The position numbers and the translations under genes are program-made. This document shows positions 25,041-33,755 of a stretch of 64,000 nt of DNA, one piece after another. Under the pieces are notes generated by a model. That model searched no databases, had not been told where the DNA came from, and saw only the letters and a list, made by a program, of their open reading frames with translations. Position 1 is the first letter of the stretch, and every line of letters starts with the position of its first letter. This stretch comes from Bdellovibrionales bacterium. GTDB lineage: Bacteria; Bdellovibrionota; Bdellovibrionia; Bdellovibrionales; UBA1609. The stretch spans positions 832,001 to 896,000 of the forward strand of contig CBDHDF010000011.1 of NCBI GenBank assembly GCA_965261545.1. The letters are read 5' to 3'.

Positions 25041-27585
25041 ACAAAATAGTTTACAGGCTCTTCGGTTAAGGATTTGAACCTCTAACTCCTCGGGGGTGGG
25101 CTAACCCCAAGTTTTTTTCTTTGATCCATGTGATTATCCGTTGGCCATAGCCCCCCTAACCTCTTTACTGGGTCTCCATACTCCGATGGGTTTTCTAGAA
25201 ACTCGGTCGTAATGCCTATTCGGACGTAGCCTTTGTCGGCAGGTCTTCATATTTGTAATGATGCAATTGAGGGTTTTACTAAGCACTACCTTTTGTTGAA
25301 GAAAAAGACTTTCAATATTTCTTGCAATTGTCAGTAAATTGTTTTTAAAGTTTGTCTGCATGGTTTGTTTTTTACTATGGGATTGAGATGTATTAAGACG
25401 GTCTTCCGTGTAGTTGGAAAATAATCTTGTCAGAGTGATAAGTGTGAAGTGTGCAAACAATTCTTGTTTGACTCCCCTTTCACTTTGAGAATGAAACTCT
25501 TCAATGGTCATCAGTTCTTTGGATATTTTGTACAGTTCCTCTATACTCCAGCGTCCATGATAGAGATTGGCCAGATCATCAATGGAATATTTTTTTTGAT
25601 CCATTAAGGTTGTTCCTAGAACAAAAGTAGTTTGTCCAATTTTATATTTGACCAAACGCAAAGCGTAGGCTTTGAAGTCGTCTTGTGGCTTTTTTTTATG
25701 TAGTTCTTTCAGAATTTGCTTGCTAGGAATGACTTGGATCACTGAGTCTTTTTGATCATTATTAATAAATTCATCAAAAACAGTGTTGGCATTTCTCCTT
25801 ATCCTAAACACCGCATGCAGACTTCGCACCTTATGCTCATGAAGCATTTCGTAGGAATAATAGCCACGATCATAAACCACAACATCGTTTTCAAACAATT
25901 TTTTGAAATGAGTTTGTGCAGCCTTTCTCTCATTGTTATGGGCAAAGAGATCAAAATCCACAGGAATCTTCGACTGTAGTTGGTACAGGCAACTGACAAG
26001 ACCTTGAGGGTACCATGCTTTTTCCCATGGTTGCTGATACCCATTATCTACGAGTTGACGTGGTAAATTTATTTTGGATCCATCCACTGCGAAAACCTTA
26101 TGGCCCTTCCATAAGGTACTAGAATTGGATATACCGTCTTGTTTAAGAATTTCATCATGCAAAACTTTAAATATATTTTCATCTACTTTAGCCCGTGCAC
26201 TACACATAGTGGATGCCCGAACTGGTTTAGGTTGAGGGAGTTCAATGTCTAATATGCGACACTGCTCCCAAAGTTCAATCAAAGTTGTATCATAACCTTG
26301 TTTTCCTTTAGAGAAAACAAGTCGGAAGATGAAAAGTATAATCAACAATGTATTCAAGACACGTTGACGCTTTTGCCAGGTTCGGTCGTACTCATCTGCA
26401 ATGATAACCACTGTCTTGATGATGTTTTGCCAAAGATGCACAAAAGAGTCCTCTAGCATAGGCTCAGCCAAGTTCTTATGTGGCTTGATGGTGGGTTTCC
26501 CGACGGGTTTCTTGATAGCGCATTGGGGGCCATTCAATAAGATAGACTGATAATTCTTTGTCAGAGGTTGAACATAAACACCTTTTTGAGTTTTTCCCTT
26601 TACATTTTTGTAGGCACGACTCCCATTTGTTTTGCCCAAATAAAGCCAGTTGGCAGCACGATAGCTCGTGGCATTAAATTTGGTAAGGTCGACAAAAGTC
26701 TCCATGAGTACAGGTTTGAAAGCATGTTTTAACTCCCAGTCTGTGGGAAGTTGGCGAGTTGCCATAGATAAAGCCATCGAAGCAAGATGGCGAACCTTTA
26801 CCCAGGGAAAGATCAAAAATCGACTATTGTTCACCACTAAATTCAAGTGCTTTTTGTAAGCTCGATTTTGCCAACCGATCCATTCATCACGGCAAGGCAA
26901 AGTGGATGTGCCAGCTTCAAATAAAAGACAACCCAATCTTCGCCCACAATTATCTAAGATGAAATAGCGTAAGTGGGGACCAAAGGGACGTCTGTAATTG
27001 AGATAATGATGCCGATCGACAACTTCATTCCATTCCTTAATGGCCTCTTGATCAGTTACGATTTGCAAAGAAAGTGGGGTCAATGAGTCTAGTTTATCGT
27101 TGATGAGAGGCTTTTCATCTGTTCGGTGTGTCCAAGTGATTTTTTTGGAGGGGACACTCCGCTTTGACATGTCTTTTTCTGGCAGGGATAGAATGTCAAG
27201 TTCCTCTAGCGTCTCAAGCATACGAAGGCACGATTGGATGCGATGATCACCTTTGGGAGTTAGCCAACCAAGATGCTCACAAACTGTATAACCCAGTTCA
27301 CGGCGACTTAAAGAAGGAAATAGCGCCACCGTCTTTTGAATGTCGGCAATTTGCTTGCGCGTCAAGCGTCTTCCAAAAAAAGTTGTTGAAGGCAATGTCT
27401 CTATGCGTGGGTCCATTTGAGTCTCTCCCCTTTGGGAATGGTTCAAATATAATGTGACACAACGATGGGGTGGACTCAAGTATTTTTTTTCGGAAAAAGA
27501 AAAAAGATAAAAGCCCCCTTAACTCAGTATGTTAGAGGGAGTCAGAAAAATGTGGAAAAATCTTCTGCAAAAACGAATGCCATTG
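25041..27585 (-). mobile_element. IS4-family element encoding a DUF4338-transposase fusion
   Basis: Left end CAATGGCATTCG at 27585 (minus strand); probable clipped right end TTCGGTTAAG at 25041, abutting IS256. Confidence 0.75.
25134..27416 (-). CDS. DUF4338 (DruA-like) domain fused to IS4 DDE transposase (about 760 aa)
   Basis: N-half HHYL..RRPFG.HLRY, CRDEWIGW, NNSRFLIFPW, LMETFVD, YRAANW; C-half FAVDGS, VYDRGY, YHGRWSIEELYK; no stop between them. Confidence 0.85.
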   Translation of the reverse strand: MDPRIETLPSTTFFGRRLTRKQIADIQKTVALFPSLSRRELGYTVCEHLGWLTPKGDHRIQSCLRMLETLEELDILSLPEKDMSKRSVPSKKITWTHRTDEKPLINDKLDSLTPLSLQIVTDQEAIKEWNEVVDRHHYLNYRRPFGPHLRYFILDNCGRRLGCLLFEAGTSTLPCRDEWIGWQNRAYKKHLNLVVNNSRFLIFPWVKVRHLASMALSMATRQLPTDWELKHAFKPVLMETFVDLTKFNATSYRAANWLYLGKTNGSRAYKNVKGKTQKGVYVQPLTKNYQSILLNGPQCAIKKPVGKPTIKPHKNLAEPMLEDSFVHLWQNIIKTVVIIADEYDRTWQKRQRVLNTLLIILFIFRLVFSKGKQGYDTTLIELWEQCRILDIELPQPKPVRASTMCSARAKVDENIFKVLHDEILKQDGISNSSTLWKGHKVFAVDGSKINLPRQLVDNGYQQPWEKAWYPQGLVSCLYQLQSKIPVDFDLFAHNNERKAAQTHFKKLFENDVVVYDRGYYSYEMLHEHKVRSLHAVFRIRRNANTVFDEFINNDQKDSVIQVIPSKQILKELHKKKPQDDFKAYALRLVKYKIGQTTFVLGTTLMDQKKYSIDDLANLYHGRWSIEELYKISKELMTIEEFHSQSERGVKQELFAHFTLITLTRLFSNYTEDRLNTSQSHSKKQTMQTNFKNNLLTIARNIESLFLQQKVVLSKTLNCIITNMKTCRQRLRPNRHYDRVSRKPIGVWRPSKEVRGAMANG

Positions 27586-29010
27586 TCTATGCGAGGGGAA
27601 TGACGACCAGGGATATTCAAGGAGCTATCAAAGACCTCTACCATGGTGCAGAGATATCCCACTCAGTGATAGCCAACGTGACGGATGCTGTTATTGATGA
27701 AGTTACGGCTTGGCAGAACCGCCCCTTGGATAGCACTTACCCTATCGTATTTTTGGACTGTATCGTGGTGAAGGTCCATCAAGACAAGAGAGTTATTAAT
27801 AAGGCGATTTACCTAGCTCTTGGTATTACAGAGGAGGGTCAGAAAGACTTGTTGGGCCTATGGATTTCTGAAAATGAGGGTTCAAAGTTTTGGTTGAGTG
27901 TTTTGACTGAGCTGCAAAATCGAGGGTTGAAAGACGTATTTATATTTTCTGTAGATGGTCTTACAGGTTTTCCTCAAGCCATTTCAGCGGCTTTTCCCAA
28001 GTCTAAAGTGCAACTGTGCATTGTCCATATGGTCCGCAATTCCCTTCGCTATGTTCCTTCCAAGGATATGAAAGCTGTCGCCCAAGACCTCAAGTCCATT
28101 TATGGCTCTACGACTCTGACAGAAGCTGAAAAGGCCCTTGAGGAATTTTGTACCAAGTGGTCTTCAAAGTATCCGAATATTGAAAAGTCTTGGCGTAGGA
28201 ATTGGGACAATCTCATCACTATTTTCGATTATCCGGATGAAATCAGAAAGATTTTTTATACCACAAACGCCATAGAGTCGTTAAATAGCGTGATCCGCAA
28301 GGCGATCAGAAATCGTAAGATATTTCCCAGTGATCGGTCGGCTTTAAAAGTTGTATATTTAGCGATAAAAATGGCCTCTAAGCGATGGACACGACCATTA
28401 CACAACTGGAAGCCAGCCATGAACAGGTTTGCCATTGAATACGGTGACCGTTTTGACAACTAAGTTTTTTAATAAATAAGGTCCCCTTATAAGGGGGCTT
28501 AAAAGCCCTCTAAGGCGTTGAGAAATGCTGGAATACGAGACTATGGAGGGTAATATAGTATGGGAACCTAAATACATGCCCTCTTGGTGCAGACTTGGGT
28601 TTCCATTTTTTTTCATATTTCATCCCAATGCTGGTATTTCTCGAATATCACAAGTTAAAAAAAATAAAAAAAAGGGGGTAATATAGTATGGGAACCTAAA
28701 CACATGAACCCTTTGATGAGATTGGAATTTCCATTTTTTTGAGAGAGCTATTGCTGATTTTTTTCCAACCAAGATGATAATTATTTATTTGAGTTCTTTC
28801 CAGTTCTGATATGATCCCATTACGGCTCCATCTCCCCATTAAATTATAATGCATTGTGACTGACAAAATCGCTTGAAGGAAAAAATGTCAATTATACATT
28901 GACGAATAATATGGGGCTGTGCTTTTTACCAGGAGTGGAGCCACATAAGTGGCTTTAAGATTTAAGATTTAAGAAAAAAATTGCAGTTACACAATTATTT
29001 TTACAGTCCC
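27586..29010 (+). pseudogene. IS256-family element, copy 2, 5'-truncated
   Basis: Matches copy 1 from YARGMTT to the stop at 28463; right end TTACAGTCCC at 29010. Confidence 0.88.
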
Positions 29011-30074
29011 ATGTTTTTCGCCGTCGGTAGTTTGTGTCATAAATTTCATGGGAGAATATCTTGATCTTCTCTATCAAAATATTTAAATACTTTTGAGATG
29101 AGCTTAGGAGATATTTGATAAAATCAGAGGCTAATAAGACGGTAACCTTAGCAACTCTTTGAAACGATGTGGAGTCATTTTGTTCCTTATTGAGTTTAGT
29201 TCTTCCTATCCTCAAAACAACACTTGATGTGAGGTGAGCCGCTAATGAAGCAAGAAGAAGACTCTCTATGATATTTTGATCGTTTGAGGTGATCTGATTT
29301 GCATTCAAAGAATTCTTACAAGATTTGAAAATAAGTTCACATTGCCAACGTAAACGATAAATTGGATATATGGACTCCGCTGCCACATCTAAATTCGTGC
29401 AATACCAATGATAGCGTTTTTCGGAGGAATTCCAGAAGCCTACAATTCTCAAACTTACCCATTTACCATTGGACAAGACACTGCCTATAAATTCAACAAC
29501 ATCGTTTTTTTTCTTGAGTTTAATATCAGAGAACTCTTTTCCAACATAGTAATCTGGCAAACCTTCAACAACAGCATCAATAAGAATAGAGGCATTTGAC
29601 TTCACTCTAGACAAGAAAAATCCTTTAGCTTCATGAATAGATGACAATAAGCCATAGTCCCAATATCCCAAATCAAAGATGACTAATTTTCCAACGAGTT
29701 CCTTTATATCAGGAAAGCACTTCCTATCGTTAGTGGAAGACGGAGTTAATTCGAACCAAGTCATTATACCACTGAATAAACTGAAACAAGCGTGCCATTT
29801 AATTCCTGCGTTTGTTCTTGTCCCTGGAAAATTCTCAGATGCTCCATCCCAAAGGCTTATTGTGCTTGAGTCAACGTAACATTCATGGGGGCGCCTTGCT
29901 TCCCCACCCACGCCCATGAATCTTATCTAGGCCCCCACTTCTTTGCACGAAGCAACTCGGTGGACAGCTTCGCTGGTCTATATAATTGGCCTCTTTTAGT
30001 TACTCTGGACTTTTGATTGTATTTTTGTCATGTATGATTCCGATACAATAAAGGATAAAGCAATAACATTATTG

Positions 30075-30261
30075 GAAGGTGATAAGATGAGTGGCCGTTG
30101 AATAGATTGGTAATTTTAATTCCGTGAAGTAACATGGTCTTGAGCTTTGGATCGAACCCACGCATGTACCTGCACTCTGAGTGTATGGACGTATAGTAAG
30201 TTGACCTATTTTCGCTTTAGAATTTATGGCAAAATCCCAAGGCTCTAGTTTTATCACCTTC
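30075..30261 (+). ncRNA. Candidate IS110 bridge RNA
   Basis: Enclosed by GAAGGTGATAA/TTATCACCTTC stem; two stem-loops whose internal loops match the target and donor junctions; exact ends unknown. Confidence 0.65.
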
Positions 30262-30289
30262 TTTTTTTCTAACAGAAAGGAGGAGTCAT

Positions 30290-31492
30290 GTGGATATTAT
30301 TTATAGTTCTGTTTGTGGAATAGATGTTCATCAACATATGTTGATGTGTACGATTGTCAAAGTGGAAGACGGTAAGAAGAAGTTTTTCACAAAAGAGTTC
30401 AAGAATTTTCCAAAAAATTTTCCTAGAATGCGCTCTTGGATGAAGCCACATAAGGTTGAGAGAGTTCTTTTTGAGAGCACAGGGATTTATTGGAATTCTT
30501 TATACGATGATTTGACAGAAAAAGGTTATGAAGTAGATGTTATCAATGCCTTTCATGTCAAAAATATTACTGGTAAAAAAACTGACGTGTTGGATAGCCA
30601 GTGGATTGCAGAGCTTGGTGCTTGTGGTCTTCTAAGAGCTAGCTTCATTCCTCCACGTGAGATTCGTTCTATTAGACTTTTGGCTCGTTATCGTACAAAA
30701 ACGATCCGCCAAATATCTTCGGAACAAAATCGTATGTATAAGGTTCTTGAATATTCAGGCATTCGTTTAACCTATGCAATGTCTAAAGCTGACTGCGTAT
30801 CTGGTATGGCCATGATTCGTGCCATAGCTAATGGAGAGAGATCAGTTTCTAAATTGATGTCTCTTGCCAGAGGGTCTTTACGTCAAAAGACCGAAGAATT
30901 TTCTTACGCCCTGTCGGGAAAGATGACGGAAGAAAATCGTTTTGTTCTTCAACGCATTCTTGATCGAATAGATTTTTTGAAAAAAGAATGCTCTCAAATT
31001 GAAGAAGAACTTTTCATTCGTATGAAACCCTATGAAAGGCAGTGGCATCTACTCCAGACTATACCTGGAATTGACGAATTAAGTGCAGCGCTTTTGATTG
31101 CAGAAATAGGAGGCAATGTGAAGTCTTTTAAAAATAAAGGAAATTTTTGCTCCTGGATGGGGATTTGCCCATCCAATAATGAGAGCGCAGGAAAAAAAAA
31201 GTCTTCACGAACGAGGAAAGCGAACACATATGTGAAATCGTTGGTATGTGAGATGGCCAATAGTGCTATTAAGACGAATTCACAATTCAAAGGCAAATAC
31301 CAATCACTTGTTATAAGGCGTGGGCACAAGAGATCAGTGATTGCCGTTGGTCACAAAATGATGGGAGTTGTTTATTCAGTCATAAGTAATGACACCCCCT
31401 ACAAAGACCCTGGAATTGACTATGAAAAGCTCATGGTGAAAAAAAATGCACCAAGGTGGATTAGAGCGTTAAAAAAGTATGATTTCATGTAA
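30290..31492 (+). CDS. IS110-family DEDD recombinase (400 aa)
   Basis: GIDVH, FESTGIYW, KKTDVLDS, TIPGI and ESAGK motifs. Confidence 0.93.
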   Translation: MDIIYSSVCGIDVHQHMLMCTIVKVEDGKKKFFTKEFKNFPKNFPRMRSWMKPHKVERVLFESTGIYWNSLYDDLTEKGYEVDVINAFHVKNITGKKTDVLDSQWIAELGACGLLRASFIPPREIRSIRLLARYRTKTIRQISSEQNRMYKVLEYSGIRLTYAMSKADCVSGMAMIRAIANGERSVSKLMSLARGSLRQKTEEFSYALSGKMTEENRFVLQRILDRIDFLKKECSQIEEELFIRMKPYERQWHLLQTIPGIDELSAALLIAEIGGNVKSFKNKGNFCSWMGICPSNNESAGKKKSSRTRKANTYVKSLVCEMANSAIKTNSQFKGKYQSLVIRRGHKRSVIAVGHKMMGVVYSVISNDTPYKDPGIDYEKLMVKKNAPRWIRALKKYDFM

Positions 31493-31580
31493 TGTAGGAT
31501 GATTTAAAAACTCGGACATTTGAAAAAATTCGAAGAACGGATAGTGGATTCGTGCGTCCAAACTACCCCGGAGATTCATA

Positions 31581-33295
31581 GTAACTATTCAGGGGGTGGG
31601 CGAATTCGAGTCATAAATGAGGGAAGTTTTCCTTGAAATAGCATATTTAGAGCATCTTTAGGTTCTATGCCATTTTTCTGGCAAGTCAGGAGAAAGCTTC
31701 GGTTTCTACAAAATGTCTTGGCTCCCATCAACGAACGAAAGCACCCAGATATTTTCTGCTGAACTTTGGTCATTCTCAGATCATTTTCTGCTATATTATT
31801 CGTAAATGGAACTATGGGGTCCTTCATAAAGAGCAAGGTATCATCTTCAAAGTTTCTCAGTCGATCTAGTAAATTTCTAGATTTGGATTGTTTAACCTTT
31901 CCCTTCTTTTTTTTCTCTGTCCTCTCCATTAATGGAGATTCCTTTTCCCCTTCGAAGAGAATATTTCGATATTTCTCTTTGTAATATTCAATTCGGTCTT
32001 GTGAAAGGCATTGGTTCTGCGTATCGTGCACCTCTTTGTTTATTGTCTCTAAAAGAGACTTCATTTCTTTTGCCCATTTTTGATCATCTTGCTCCCAAGC
32101 TCTTTGAAGCTCCCTTAAATGGTGCGCATTGCAAAGGGCATGAATGCAGGAAGTATATGTATAATAAGGTTTCCAATGGTCATGACAAACAATCCCTGTG
32201 TATTTTGGAAGAATTCCCATGCGATCCATAGCCTCTGCGCCTCTTTTTTCGTCCACCTGATAGAGAACCACAGTATCATTGGACAAGAGGTGAAACCACA
32301 GCCTCTTCCCATTAACATTCACTCCAGTTTCGTCAGCATGAATCAAAGGTGAGTTCAGAAGAGTTTCCTTTGCCCACTCCTCAAAAGCTTCCAGAGCCTC
32401 AAAGGCAGATTTGTTAAAATTGTGTACCGTAGATCCAGCAAGCGATAGACCCCATTGATTAAAGTAACTTGCGACTCGAAGATGAGGGATTAACTGAAAC
32501 TGGGACATATAAACTGAGTGAGCTTTCACAGAAGGGCCATATTGAGTTGGGTTATTGATTCCTTCTGGAAAACCTGCAACCCACTGATTCCCATCTTGGT
32601 CTTCGAGGATTTCTCCTTGATACTCCGTGACATGCACAGAAAGGTCTACCTCAAATACTTGACGCTTTTCAACTCCAGAAGAAATGTAATCACCTGGAGG
32701 AAGTTCCTCTTTATTAATAGAAATGAACTCCACCTTGTCTGGAGTATCCACGGGTTTTAAAGTAGCTCCTTCGTGTCCGGGTTGTCCTCCTGGCTTCTTA
32801 CCAGTTTCTTCCTTAGGTTTCTTTTTAGGGCCATTCGGATCTTGAGAAGGGGCAATACTACTGTTTTGACTATTTAATTTTTTTTGATTTACTAGAATAG
32901 TGATGATTTTGATCAACAACTCAATGGCCACAATAAAAGCGGGAGAAAGGGACTTCTCTTTCTTAAGAAGCTTCCTGATTTTATTTATGGCTGAAGACAC
33001 GTCAATATTTTCTATTTTCATACTTACCTTATGAAAATATTAACATGCCTTTTTTTCATTAAAAAAAATGCACTAGGATTCGTTCTAAGAAGCAAAAGGA
33101 ATGAGAAGTGCCCCCCGCGACCTATGTTTCACAATCTTTCAATACTATGGCTCTCAGAGAGTTTAAGGCATATGCAGGAACATATTCGATAAAGAACAAA
33201 TGAAAGAGGTCGTTTGCTTCAAAAACTTGTCAAGAATTTTTATACTTTTTTTAAAAAAATTGTTCGAATTAATGCAGCACCCCCTGAATAGTTAC
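31581..33295 (-). mobile_element. IS66-family single-ORF element, copy 1 (1715 bp)
   Basis: IR GTAACTATTCAGGGGG; 8-bp TSD GAGTCAAC at 33296-33303 and, displaced by IS110, at 29868-29875. Confidence 0.9.
31585..33021 (-). CDS. tnpC: IS66-family transposase (478 aa)
   Basis: NSSIAPSQD, GGQPGHEG, IHADET, LCNAHHLREL and TNNIAENDLR motifs. Confidence 0.92.
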   Translation of the reverse strand: MKIENIDVSSAINKIRKLLKKEKSLSPAFIVAIELLIKIITILVNQKKLNSQNSSIAPSQDPNGPKKKPKEETGKKPGGQPGHEGATLKPVDTPDKVEFISINKEELPPGDYISSGVEKRQVFEVDLSVHVTEYQGEILEDQDGNQWVAGFPEGINNPTQYGPSVKAHSVYMSQFQLIPHLRVASYFNQWGLSLAGSTVHNFNKSAFEALEAFEEWAKETLLNSPLIHADETGVNVNGKRLWFHLLSNDTVVLYQVDEKRGAEAMDRMGILPKYTGIVCHDHWKPYYTYTSCIHALCNAHHLRELQRAWEQDDQKWAKEMKSLLETINKEVHDTQNQCLSQDRIEYYKEKYRNILFEGEKESPLMERTEKKKKGKVKQSKSRNLLDRLRNFEDDTLLFMKDPIVPFTNNIAENDLRMTKVQQKISGCFRSLMGAKTFCRNRSFLLTCQKNGIEPKDALNMLFQGKLPSFMTRIRPPPE

Positions 33296-33755
33296 GAGTC
33301 AACAAGAAGAACGTCTGAGACTCCCAGTTGTAATAATATGGCTTTGCTCCCATGAAAAGCTCCTGAGATAGCTTTATCATGAGCATTTCAACCAGTTTAC
33401 TCAGAAGCTCTTTTAATCTTTTTCTAGAGAGTCTTTCCCAGAAGCTGTGTCTTTCAATTCTTAATCCTAAATGACTTATCATAAACCTCCTAATTCCCTC
33501 TATTGAATATGTCTTAGAGTCTCCCTGGAATGACAAGACAAGAGCCACAATAAACTCAAGAGGTGGAATGGTTGCCCGAGAGTCCTTTTCAGGAATAACT
33601 TTCTTGAAACATTTTTTGATCGTTTTAAGTGTTTGAGCTTCCGTGCTCATATTTGCCCCCTGCGTTTAAAAAATAAAAATTTCCTCCAATTAATCTTGAC
33701 CTATTAAGATACTAACGCGAGAATCATTAAGTCTGTAGATAACTCACTTGTATCT

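Follow-up and report, generated by a model that had tools for sequence, protein, structure and literature searches.

The stretch of DNA analysed here, called the window, comprises 64,000 nucleotides (nt) of contig CBDHDF010000011.1 from a Bdellovibrionales bacterium, and harbours an IS110-family element inserted in a terminal repeat of an IS66-family element. Upstream of its recombinase gene, the IS110-family element carries a candidate bridge RNA that has two loops, one for the target and one for the donor. As judged from covariation among relatives, the donor loop's 5' arm very probably pairs with a distal site inside the left end of the element and not with the bases next to the crossover. 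We favour the reading (probability about 0.6, from sequence comparison) that the donor would be a single minus strand folded on itself and recognized in this form by the bridge RNA. The layout of the element ends is clade-wide. Odds are about even for the broader proposal that an IS110 branch with recombinases of ~ 400 amino acids (aa), present in many phyla, uses a folded-strand donor with a left end free to drift, which in the present element would have become IS66-like and be carried by IS66.

Donor loop and a distal site in the left end

The initial annotation of this DNA had proposed a bridge RNA with two guide arms in each loop. All strings it quoted were found in place, the closing stem (30075-30085 with 30251-30261) is a perfect duplex of 11 bp, and the two-loop layout aligns in the closest 21 sequences, with covarying arms. 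Three of the four guide arms were right or nearly so. Chance rates were estimated from 20,000 dinucleotide shuffles of the region inside the closing stem: TGAATAG of the target loop arose in 2.3%, GTAAC of the same loop in 14%, and ATAGTAA of the donor loop in 1.5%, while all three in order were obtained in 0 of 20,000.

Covariation was scored between the RNA of each element and its own DNA, and compared with permuted partners. Relatives were collected from 79 genome, 79 metagenome, and 49 viral loci with 24-48% identity to this element. The sets omit, where data are lacking, L045 (the same element as L041), L031 (no left end), and L030 (no RNA anchor). The 3' arm of the donor loop, ATAGTAA, holds as a donor guide: it repeats in the same sense the final 7 nt of the right end, with agreement in 85/85 positions compared with 63.0 after permutation (17 elements).

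The other donor arm had been placed at 30158-30167 and paired with the plus strand beside the crossover, in an IS621-like manner read on the other strand. Eight of its ten bases do match the complement of the junction-proximal left end in this element; such a match arises in 11% of shuffles, and the arm is therefore not above chance. Its last three bases (30165-30167) fall in a conserved stem, in which the pairs 30165:30191, 30166:30190, and 30167:30189 are kept in 21, 20, and 20 of 21 aligned sequences. Covariation was absent in 10 registers tried on 20 elements (69/180 in the register first proposed, 72 permuted), as well as in 6 registers of the held-out set described below. This canonical pairing is largely refuted and highly improbable.

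A different arm, ACCCACGC (Table 1), is an uninterrupted same-sense copy (8/8) of the distal site, a match reached by 0.06% of shuffles. The site lies on the opposite strand from that proposed initially. The discovery parse recovered 47 of 161 sequences, with an RNA anchor in 43, and only four positions outside both anchors were scored, a run of C being excluded. Arm and site agreed in 99/160 positions (66.2 ± 4.8 permuted; 40 elements), with 55 and 65 in slid registers. Corresponding values were 88/140 against 57.6 in 35 elements and 55/84 against 32.0 ± 3.9 in 21 more distant ones. Among 19 pairs on non-overlapping paths of a protein tree, which included no named reference elements, 9 were for the pairing, 1 against, and 9 tied (p 0.011).

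The held-out set consists of 159 loci outside the discovery parse, 148 of them with enough upstream DNA. The parser used on it required the hairpin and the repeat motif, not the C-run, and recovered 43 ends. The best match anywhere reached 246/301 (218.5 permuted); the complement control gave 222 against 221.8, and the hairpin control remained at background. A fixed-register anchor that ignores the element's own end, devised after the previous result was known, yielded 144/204 against 93.7 ± 6.0 in 34 ends, and with rising dereplication 105/144 against 63.3 and, in the strict version, 62/90 against 42.2. In 9 ends with a longer spacer, the match rises from 38 to 60 of 63 once a DNA base is looped out; five of these ends share nearly one arm and are probably related. 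In the 25 other ends, the same change lowers the match from 134 to 107 of 175.

The same-sense match could also be a relic of a duplication or inversion, or reflect RNA-RNA pairing of site and arm with a common partner, and would then play no part in DNA recognition. It is indeed partly a conserved C-run in the discovery set. This run was, however, excluded from scoring and is absent from many held-out sites, and the match persists at 31-48% protein identity. Complementary partners are not in excess in the non-coding region of the element (216 compared with 219.7), and a shared RNA partner was dropped as a candidate. An inversion model, in which a flip of the 31 nt from the core to the distal site would produce a canonical donor, was dropped as well, as no inverted variant of the left end was found in the genome or in 30 loci of a multi-copy relative (34 normal ends). 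We give a relic or a shared partner a very slim chance.

Hairpin, subterminal repeats and a proposed folded strand

A hairpin, variable in sequence across elements and formed here by GGGG (29887-29890) and CCCC (29902-29905), separates the first 7 nt of the left end from the distal site. Its four outer pairs are of Watson-Crick type in 127/160 cases (65.0 permuted), with 44 and 49 in slid controls, and pairs on the tree give 15 for, 0 against, and 4 ties. Three mis-parsed arms were corrected by hand in the set used for the hairpin, target arms, and handshake. Subterminal inverted repeats measure 8 bp here, and 17 elements have 6-10 contiguous outer matches accompanied by inner pairs. In their outer positions, the right end covaries with the distal site (81/102, 49.3 permuted) and shows no covariation with the junction-proximal site (31/96 and 30.2).

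Both donor arms carry plus-strand sequence, and therefore both pair with the minus strand. In a folded minus-strand junction, 7 nt, the TT core, and 5 nt would stand opposite 7 nt, 2 nt, and 5 nt of the distal segment. On paper, the geometry of this 14-nt fold-back bubble equals the donor register of IS621, and the site of each arm is on the same side as in IS621. A clue to the strand comes from 14 of 17 repeat stems, in which a C.A mismatch on the plus strand corresponds to a G.T wobble on the minus strand; non-Watson-Crick pairs of the hairpin are compatible with the minus strand in 8 cases and with the plus strand in two. The minus strand is paired by the 3' arms; in IS621 the strand so paired is cut first (PMC11208158; here and below, published work is cited from the available parts of its text) and, according to two preprints, departs as a single-stranded circle. 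In PMC11208158 a two-base match is known as the handshake.

The following course of events is proposed. An active IS110-family element would use its upstream bridge RNA to guide the recombinase. The target loop would open double-stranded GT-AA-CTATTCA, the 5' arm pairing with the plus strand and the 3' arm with the minus strand, and the element would land mostly in either IS66 end, regenerating a full IS66 repeat on the right; the site preference is observed, and the RNA pairing is suggested by complementarity. Both donor arms would, as covariation indicates, pair with the minus strand, one at the final 7 nt of the right end, the other 26 nt inside the left end. Once the ends are joined in a single minus strand, the subterminal repeats would form one duplex and the hairpin another, with the 14-nt bubble between them. 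Each side of the bubble would bear one guide site, arranged in the register of IS621, with the distal site substituting for the absent complementary strand. By analogy with IS621 and CazIS110-1, the element may be copied out as a minus-strand circle and inserted as such, while the CA handshake would pull the strand exchange forward.

Several observations weigh against a folded single-stranded donor. Most of the 14 wobble cases go back to a single inherited change, and a further 24 mismatches are compatible with neither strand. As naked DNA, this element prefers a fold between its proximal bases and the distal repeat (-7.8 kcal/mol) over the model fold (-2.9 kcal/mol), and 17 junction folds are not consistently more stable than shuffles (z +0.9 to -4.5). 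As read, the 16 distinct junctions join the distal repeat with the right end in 9, the distal repeat with proximal bases in 6, and the right end with proximal bases in 1. The donor-loop handshake shows no covariation (13/34, 10.7 permuted), and the consensus fold resolves the outer half of the donor loop poorly, with a mean unpaired probability of 0.58 for the 5' arm. When this element is removed, the target 5' arm covaries weakly in relatives (41/112 against 33.9, 38/112 against 28.9, and 35/112 against 32.7 in three registers). More than half of the loci were left unparsed (47/161 parsed in discovery, 43/159 in the held-out set) possibly because of truncation or a different build. Of 48 viral loci, 0 were parsed by the discovery regular expression, and a motif-free inverted-repeat version of the test proved too noisy for interpretation. 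In ISPpu9, a mutant of the left-end palindrome still gave circles in end-point polymerase chain reaction (PMC12288879), so the hairpin is not strictly needed for excision there. For CazIS110-1, double-stranded donors were inserted better than single-stranded ones at one junction.

The last of these points, together with the weakness of the model fold on naked DNA, would suit the same pairings made on double-stranded DNA. The recombinase, perhaps through its longer variable region, would extrude the hairpin as a cruciform or loop the left end of a supercoiled circle, and no free single-stranded circle would be involved. Every covariation result fits this explanation equally, as sequence cannot separate a free strand from a cruciform extruded by protein, and inverted repeats are likewise kept as binding sites of proteins. 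Some 50 bp of duplex must open, however, and the wobble pattern weakly favours minus-strand pairing, and we consider this explanation unlikely.

The pairing could otherwise act at the integrated left end, in excision, direct strand transfer, or an off state, instead of at the circle junction. The alternative hairpin of proximal and distal bases would then expose the distal site as a bulge; this fold has the minimum energy in this element and five relatives, proximal TCAT is conserved, and excision depending on donor arms only has been reported for IS621. Against it, covariation of the right end with the outer distal repeat matters only when the ends meet, and the ISPpu9 circles formed with the palindrome mutated. 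An effect confined to the integrated end therefore appears improbable to us.

If the folded single strand is indeed the donor, it would resolve a difficulty, namely that IS110 elements leave as single-stranded circles according to preprints, whereas the standard donor loop needs both strands. For a large IS110 branch the fold-back donor would reconcile the two, make exact predictions about compensatory changes and strand choice, and account for the unexplained left-end palindrome of ISPpu9. Pipelines that inspect no more than 25 nt around the core (10.64898/2026.10.21.760802) may then mis-call donor guides. An engineering prospect would be programmable recombinases that accept single-stranded donors, with minimal ends of ~ 50 nt on the left and 12-16 nt on the right. 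The new aspect would be a donor guide read on a folded-back single strand, compared with a normal double helix in systems described so far; targeting of IS66 ends alone would be a new instance of a known habit.

Crossover core, target loop and insertion sites

The element was initially described as inserted after GTAAC. This motif does flank it, but the crossover core comprises only AA. Right junctions retain GTAA with a variable fifth base. Left junctions retain TAAC, but T replaces the preceding G in 2 of 22 distinct flanks, and no more than TAA can therefore be shared. In two relatives the core is preceded at the right end by G-A and by C, respectively, which restricts it to AA. It follows that GTAAC of the target loop, correctly recognized as the 3' arm, reads as GTAA (target and core) and the beginning of CA, in agreement with the two bases at the start of the element itself.

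In the consensus fold, derived from the 21-sequence alignment of closest relatives in which the two-loop layout aligns well, neither target-loop arm is paired. The single-sequence fold of the region is modestly stable (z -1.72). The candidate RNA had no match in Rfam at E ≤ 1, and no sense-strand sigma-70 consensus was found at a tandem junction. The 3' arm agrees with the left flank in 83/140 positions (54.9 permuted), and the handshake, formed by the next two RNA bases and the first two bases of the element, in 38/40 (25.0 permuted). TGAATAG as the guide of the 5' arm is borne out by its 7/7 match and by site occupancy. An RNA-region remnant at G000 C11:69171-69247 carries CC at the handshake position, and several of the mini-elements described below begin with CC after the core; this may be a paired change within the genome.

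Among 37 right junctions, 15 are in IS66 repeats, 10 are tandem, abutting the left end of another copy and so displaying the joined ends, and 12 are elsewhere. Other copies thus sit in the same site, and the 15 junctions comprise 7 upstream, 6 downstream, and 2 interrupted IS66 ends; 15 is an upper limit on independent insertion events, because some occupied ends may have been copied together with IS66. Two GTAA motifs first counted as IS66 ends were dropped, their flanks being identical in all copies. As read, the 12 junctions elsewhere include 6 inside the element's own copies and 2 that are duplicates of one site. The 22 distinct left flanks have T at -1 in 22/22 and G at -2 in 20/22, and are otherwise unshared. 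Right and left junctions together reveal insertion at a short core common to target and donor, with no separate target duplication.

Occupancy was 16/36 for GTAACTATTCA sites, compared with 1/50 for sites matching in six of seven positions and 37/25,461 for GTAA sites. None of 13 sister ends with one change holds a full copy. Outside IS66, one perfect site and one six-of-seven site are occupied. Since the perfect site is not in IS66, target choice follows sequence and not IS66 as such. A target loop programmed for the IS66 repeat, as read initially, is supported.

Two multi-copy relatives have relaxed targets, with little more than CTAA (L187-L216 in G041; L219-L246, mostly G044). In one of them all 28 left flanks end in CTAA, 16 of these in GCTAA, as predicted by its target-loop 3' arm, and the right side is A-rich. 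One multi-copy relative has 44 matches in a 4-Mb genome. Among the elements examined, only this one has a tight target 5' arm directed at IS66 ends.

As a separate observation, the right end holds TACCCCGGA (31564-31572), which is the commonest donor 5' arm in the closest relatives and not this element's own. Two self-insertions adjoin it.

The locus and genomic copies

Three elements are nested, the IS110-family element within an IS66 repeat and the IS66 element within an IS4-type transposase gene, whose pieces lie at 28955-29875 and 33296-33650. Terminal inverted repeats and an 8-bp duplication are the hallmarks of IS66-type elements, and both are present in the host, together with an IS66 DDE transposase of 478 aa (open reading frame 31585-33021) scoring above the cut-off of NF033517. 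The IS66 identity of the host and its full repeat on the right side of the IS110-family element, as annotated initially, are therefore real. The host contains this single open reading frame and no accessory genes inside, and the IS110-family element occupies its downstream inverted repeat. The empty site of the host is present in contigs of three public runs.

The genome contains 26 near-full-length copies of the IS110-family element with identity of at least 99.5%, which indicates recent movement. Its left region is ~ 120 nt longer than in relatives, and a 65-bp stretch of the left non-coding region (29959-30023) is common to another multi-copy repeat (50 hits). Elsewhere in the window, a 781-aa open reading frame (25134-27479) fuses a DruA domain (PF14236) with a DDE_Tnp_1 domain, and is flanked by two inverted partial copies of another transposase gene.

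Table 1. Positions of features of the nested elements in the window
Feature	Position	Strand	Basis or remark
IS66 host target duplication, left copy, 8 bp GAGTCAAC	29868-29875	+	Identical to 33296-33303
IS110-family element, including both shared GTAAC copies	29876-31585	+	Repeat unit 1705 bp; genome copies, junction census
AA core, left copy (crossover)	29878-29879	+	Off-target junctions, relatives
Junction-proximal 7 nt of left end	29880-29886	+	First two bases match handshake position; rest not guide-matched
Left-end hairpin	29887-29905		GGGG / CCCC arms
Distal donor-guide site	29906-29913	-	Minus strand complementary to donor 5' arm; 26 nt inside left end
Left subterminal inverted repeat	29916-29923	+	36 nt in from core; 8/8 complementary to 31572-31579
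Candidate bridge RNA, bounded by 11-bp closing stem	30075-30261	+	Stem, fold, alignment; sequence-based
Target loop 5' arm TGAATAG	30099-30105	+	7/7 complementary to plus strand of IS66 repeat 31585-31591
Target loop 3' arm GTAA (two target bases and core) with handshake CA	30129-30134	+	Covariation
Donor loop 5' arm ACCCACGC	30156-30163	+	Same-sense copy of 29906-29913; mirrors position of target 5' arm
Inner stem-loop of donor loop	30165-30191	+	Conserved pairs in alignment
Donor loop 3' arm	30193-30199	+	Same-sense copy of right-end last 7 nt 31578-31584
DEDD bridge recombinase, 400 aa	30290-31492	+	PF01548, PF02371; D12, E62, D99, D102; S299
Right subterminal inverted repeat	31572-31579	+	3 nt before core; complementary to left repeat
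IS66-family host element	31581-33295	-	18-bp inverted repeats 31581-31598/33278-33295, single transposase
AA core, right copy	31583-31584	+	Junction census
IS66 host target duplication, right copy, 8 bp GAGTCAAC	33296-33303	+	Identical to 29868-29875

Likeness to IS66 ends, mini-elements and scars

The left end fits the pattern GTAAC-N6-GGGGG of IS66-type ends in this genome. GT derives from the target and AA represents the core; TCAT occurs clade-wide, and the G-run forms the 5' arm of the hairpin, which opens with GGGG in only one other of 40 elements. This resemblance is suggestive of mimicry, and a relaxed demand on the first 7 nt would presumably ease the evolution of an IS66-like left end. 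Travel of the IS110-family element with IS66 by means of this end, a possibility raised in the initial annotation, is unproven.

Palindromes of 45-51 bp composed of the left end and flanked by 8-bp duplications were observed at G000 C2:618569-618619, C6:99928-99978, and C10 from 204619, and in a repeated set at C2:345-384 kb. They are either miniature elements moved by IS66 or collapse scars of an IS66 element that bore two inverted copies as caps. They were rejected as proof of movement of this left end by IS66, since the same product results when two inverted copies cap one IS66 element and the DNA between their 9-bp direct repeats is deleted, and two IS66 elements capped in this way exist in the genome. 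The nearly precise excision of Tn10 is a comparable deletion between direct repeats. Two hybrid ends (G000 C2:284802 and C2:856129) combine the first 16 bases of the IS110 left end with the interior of an IS66-type end, as if a copy had been lost by slippage between G-runs, and no partner end was found within 6 kb of either. Because slippage explains them, neither the palindromes nor the partnerless hybrid ends prove use of the left end by IS66.

Six non-autonomous mini-elements of ~ 110 bp, built of the left end, an AT-rich spacer, and the right end, keep just the predicted end parts. They are located near G000 C2:233.6 kb, C2:289.2 kb, C3:20.9 kb, C6:3.6 kb, C10:576.5 kb, and C11:725.9 kb. 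Three of the six are in IS66-type ends, two of these being one duplicated locus. Their subterminal repeat differs from that of the full element by a paired change.

Recombinase and its relatives

The recombinase combines a DEDD RuvC-like domain with a Transposase_20 domain bearing the catalytic serine, which is the signature of the IS110 family, and all catalytic residues listed in Table 1 are kept. It scores 245 bits (cut-off 140) with NF033542, the NCBIfam model of RNA-guided IS110 transposases, and the top fold matches of its structure model are IS621 and ISCro4. The gene is surrounded by non-coding stretches of 414 nt upstream and 93 nt downstream. No close relative (E ≤ 1e-90) was detected in 383 genomes of the order or in 400 sampled genomes of the phylum, and none in a metagenome scan with the single protein.

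A run of nine A (31192-31200) directly follows the codon of the catalytic serine. Frameshifts at this run, in many genome copies and in some relatives with 65-80% identity, lead to products of ~ 314 aa. Both sequencing error and slippage are possible, and the intact run is present in a public contig.

Comparison with known systems

In integron attC sites and IS200/IS605 ends, one specific strand folds into the substrate. Those folds are read by protein, through tyrosine or HUH enzymes, with no RNA guide pairing, unlike the donor proposed here. IS4321 and IS5075 reportedly target the terminal repeats of another transposon family, and resemble the present element in this respect. Bridge RNAs and elements that target other mobile DNA are already known, and so is insertion in tandem and at half-matches (10.64898/2026.08.14.744561). 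Pairing of a donor guide with a distant site of the same strand, and IS110 targeting of IS66 ends, were not found in the literature text searched, a scope that leaves figures and bioRxiv supplements outside. A requirement for a hairpin has been reported for the target of ISPpu10, not its donor (10.64898/2026.03.19.712850), and PMC13626964 describes excision with canonical pairing.

With IS621 and ISCro4 (IS622), the element shares a recombinase with DEDD residues and catalytic serine (~ 20% identity), an upstream two-loop RNA, a 2-nt core, the 14-nt register, and a right target guide of 4 nt followed by a 2-nt handshake (PMC11208160, PMC11208158, 10.1101/2025.05.14.653916). It differs from them in the reversed order of guides relative to the gene, the AA core, long subterminal repeats, a protein of 400 aa compared with 328, and in one donor arm, which matches a distal site located on the strand also matched by the other arm.

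The long upstream non-coding region is that of the IS621/ISEc21 type of the IS110 group. In that type, the bottom-strand guide precedes the top-strand guide (PMC11187229), an order reversed here, where the guide complementary to the top strand comes first in an RNA upstream of the gene. Subterminal repeats are absent or 2-3 bp long in that type, and its two donor guides are on opposite strands at the junction, which covariation does not support for this element. The guide order is shared with the IS1111 group (e.g. ISEc11), and the subterminal inverted repeats with a right extension of 3 nt recall those of that group (PMC11187229). IS1111 repeats are usually 11-13 bp long, and those described here are present and covarying but measure only 8 bp; extensions are 7 bp on the left and 3 bp on the right in that group, compared with 36 nt including a hairpin on the left and 3 nt plus core on the right. 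Further, IS1111 elements have their non-coding region downstream and their transposase has 330-350 aa (PMC11187229). ISEc21 itself, also of IS110 type and equipped with an upstream RNA, similarly aims at another IS family; its target is in the coding region of an IS3 transposase gene, not in a terminal repeat, and its guide order is opposite (PMC11187229).

Single-strand excision has been reported for IS621 and CazIS110-1 (10.1101/2025.10.25.684509, 10.64898/2026.08.31.748434), and the IS621 circle is proposed to be made double-stranded by the host before insertion. CazIS110-1 and copy-out IS621 share half-match off-target and tandem insertion with the present element, comparable to the 10 tandem and 12 off-target junctions; their donor guides are described on opposite strands at the junction, unlike here.

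A parallel in end structure concerns ISPpu9 of Pseudomonas putida, a likeness drawn from its published ends. A pattern scan of viral contigs did not recover ISPpu9. This element has an AG core and targets repetitive extragenic palindromic (REP) sequences, differing from our element in both. The available text of PMC12288879 suggests a role of the palindrome in efficiency or integration, and proposes no guide pairing or fold. Its derivative resembling a miniature inverted-repeat transposable element and its tandem copies (PMC12288879) recall those described above. As read here, the 43-bp A box and 16-bp B box of ISPpu9 parse as core, 7 nt, hairpin, and 14 nt, and a 6-bp inverted repeat between the boxes (PMC12288879, supplement Table S2) has the spacing seen in the ends of this clade.

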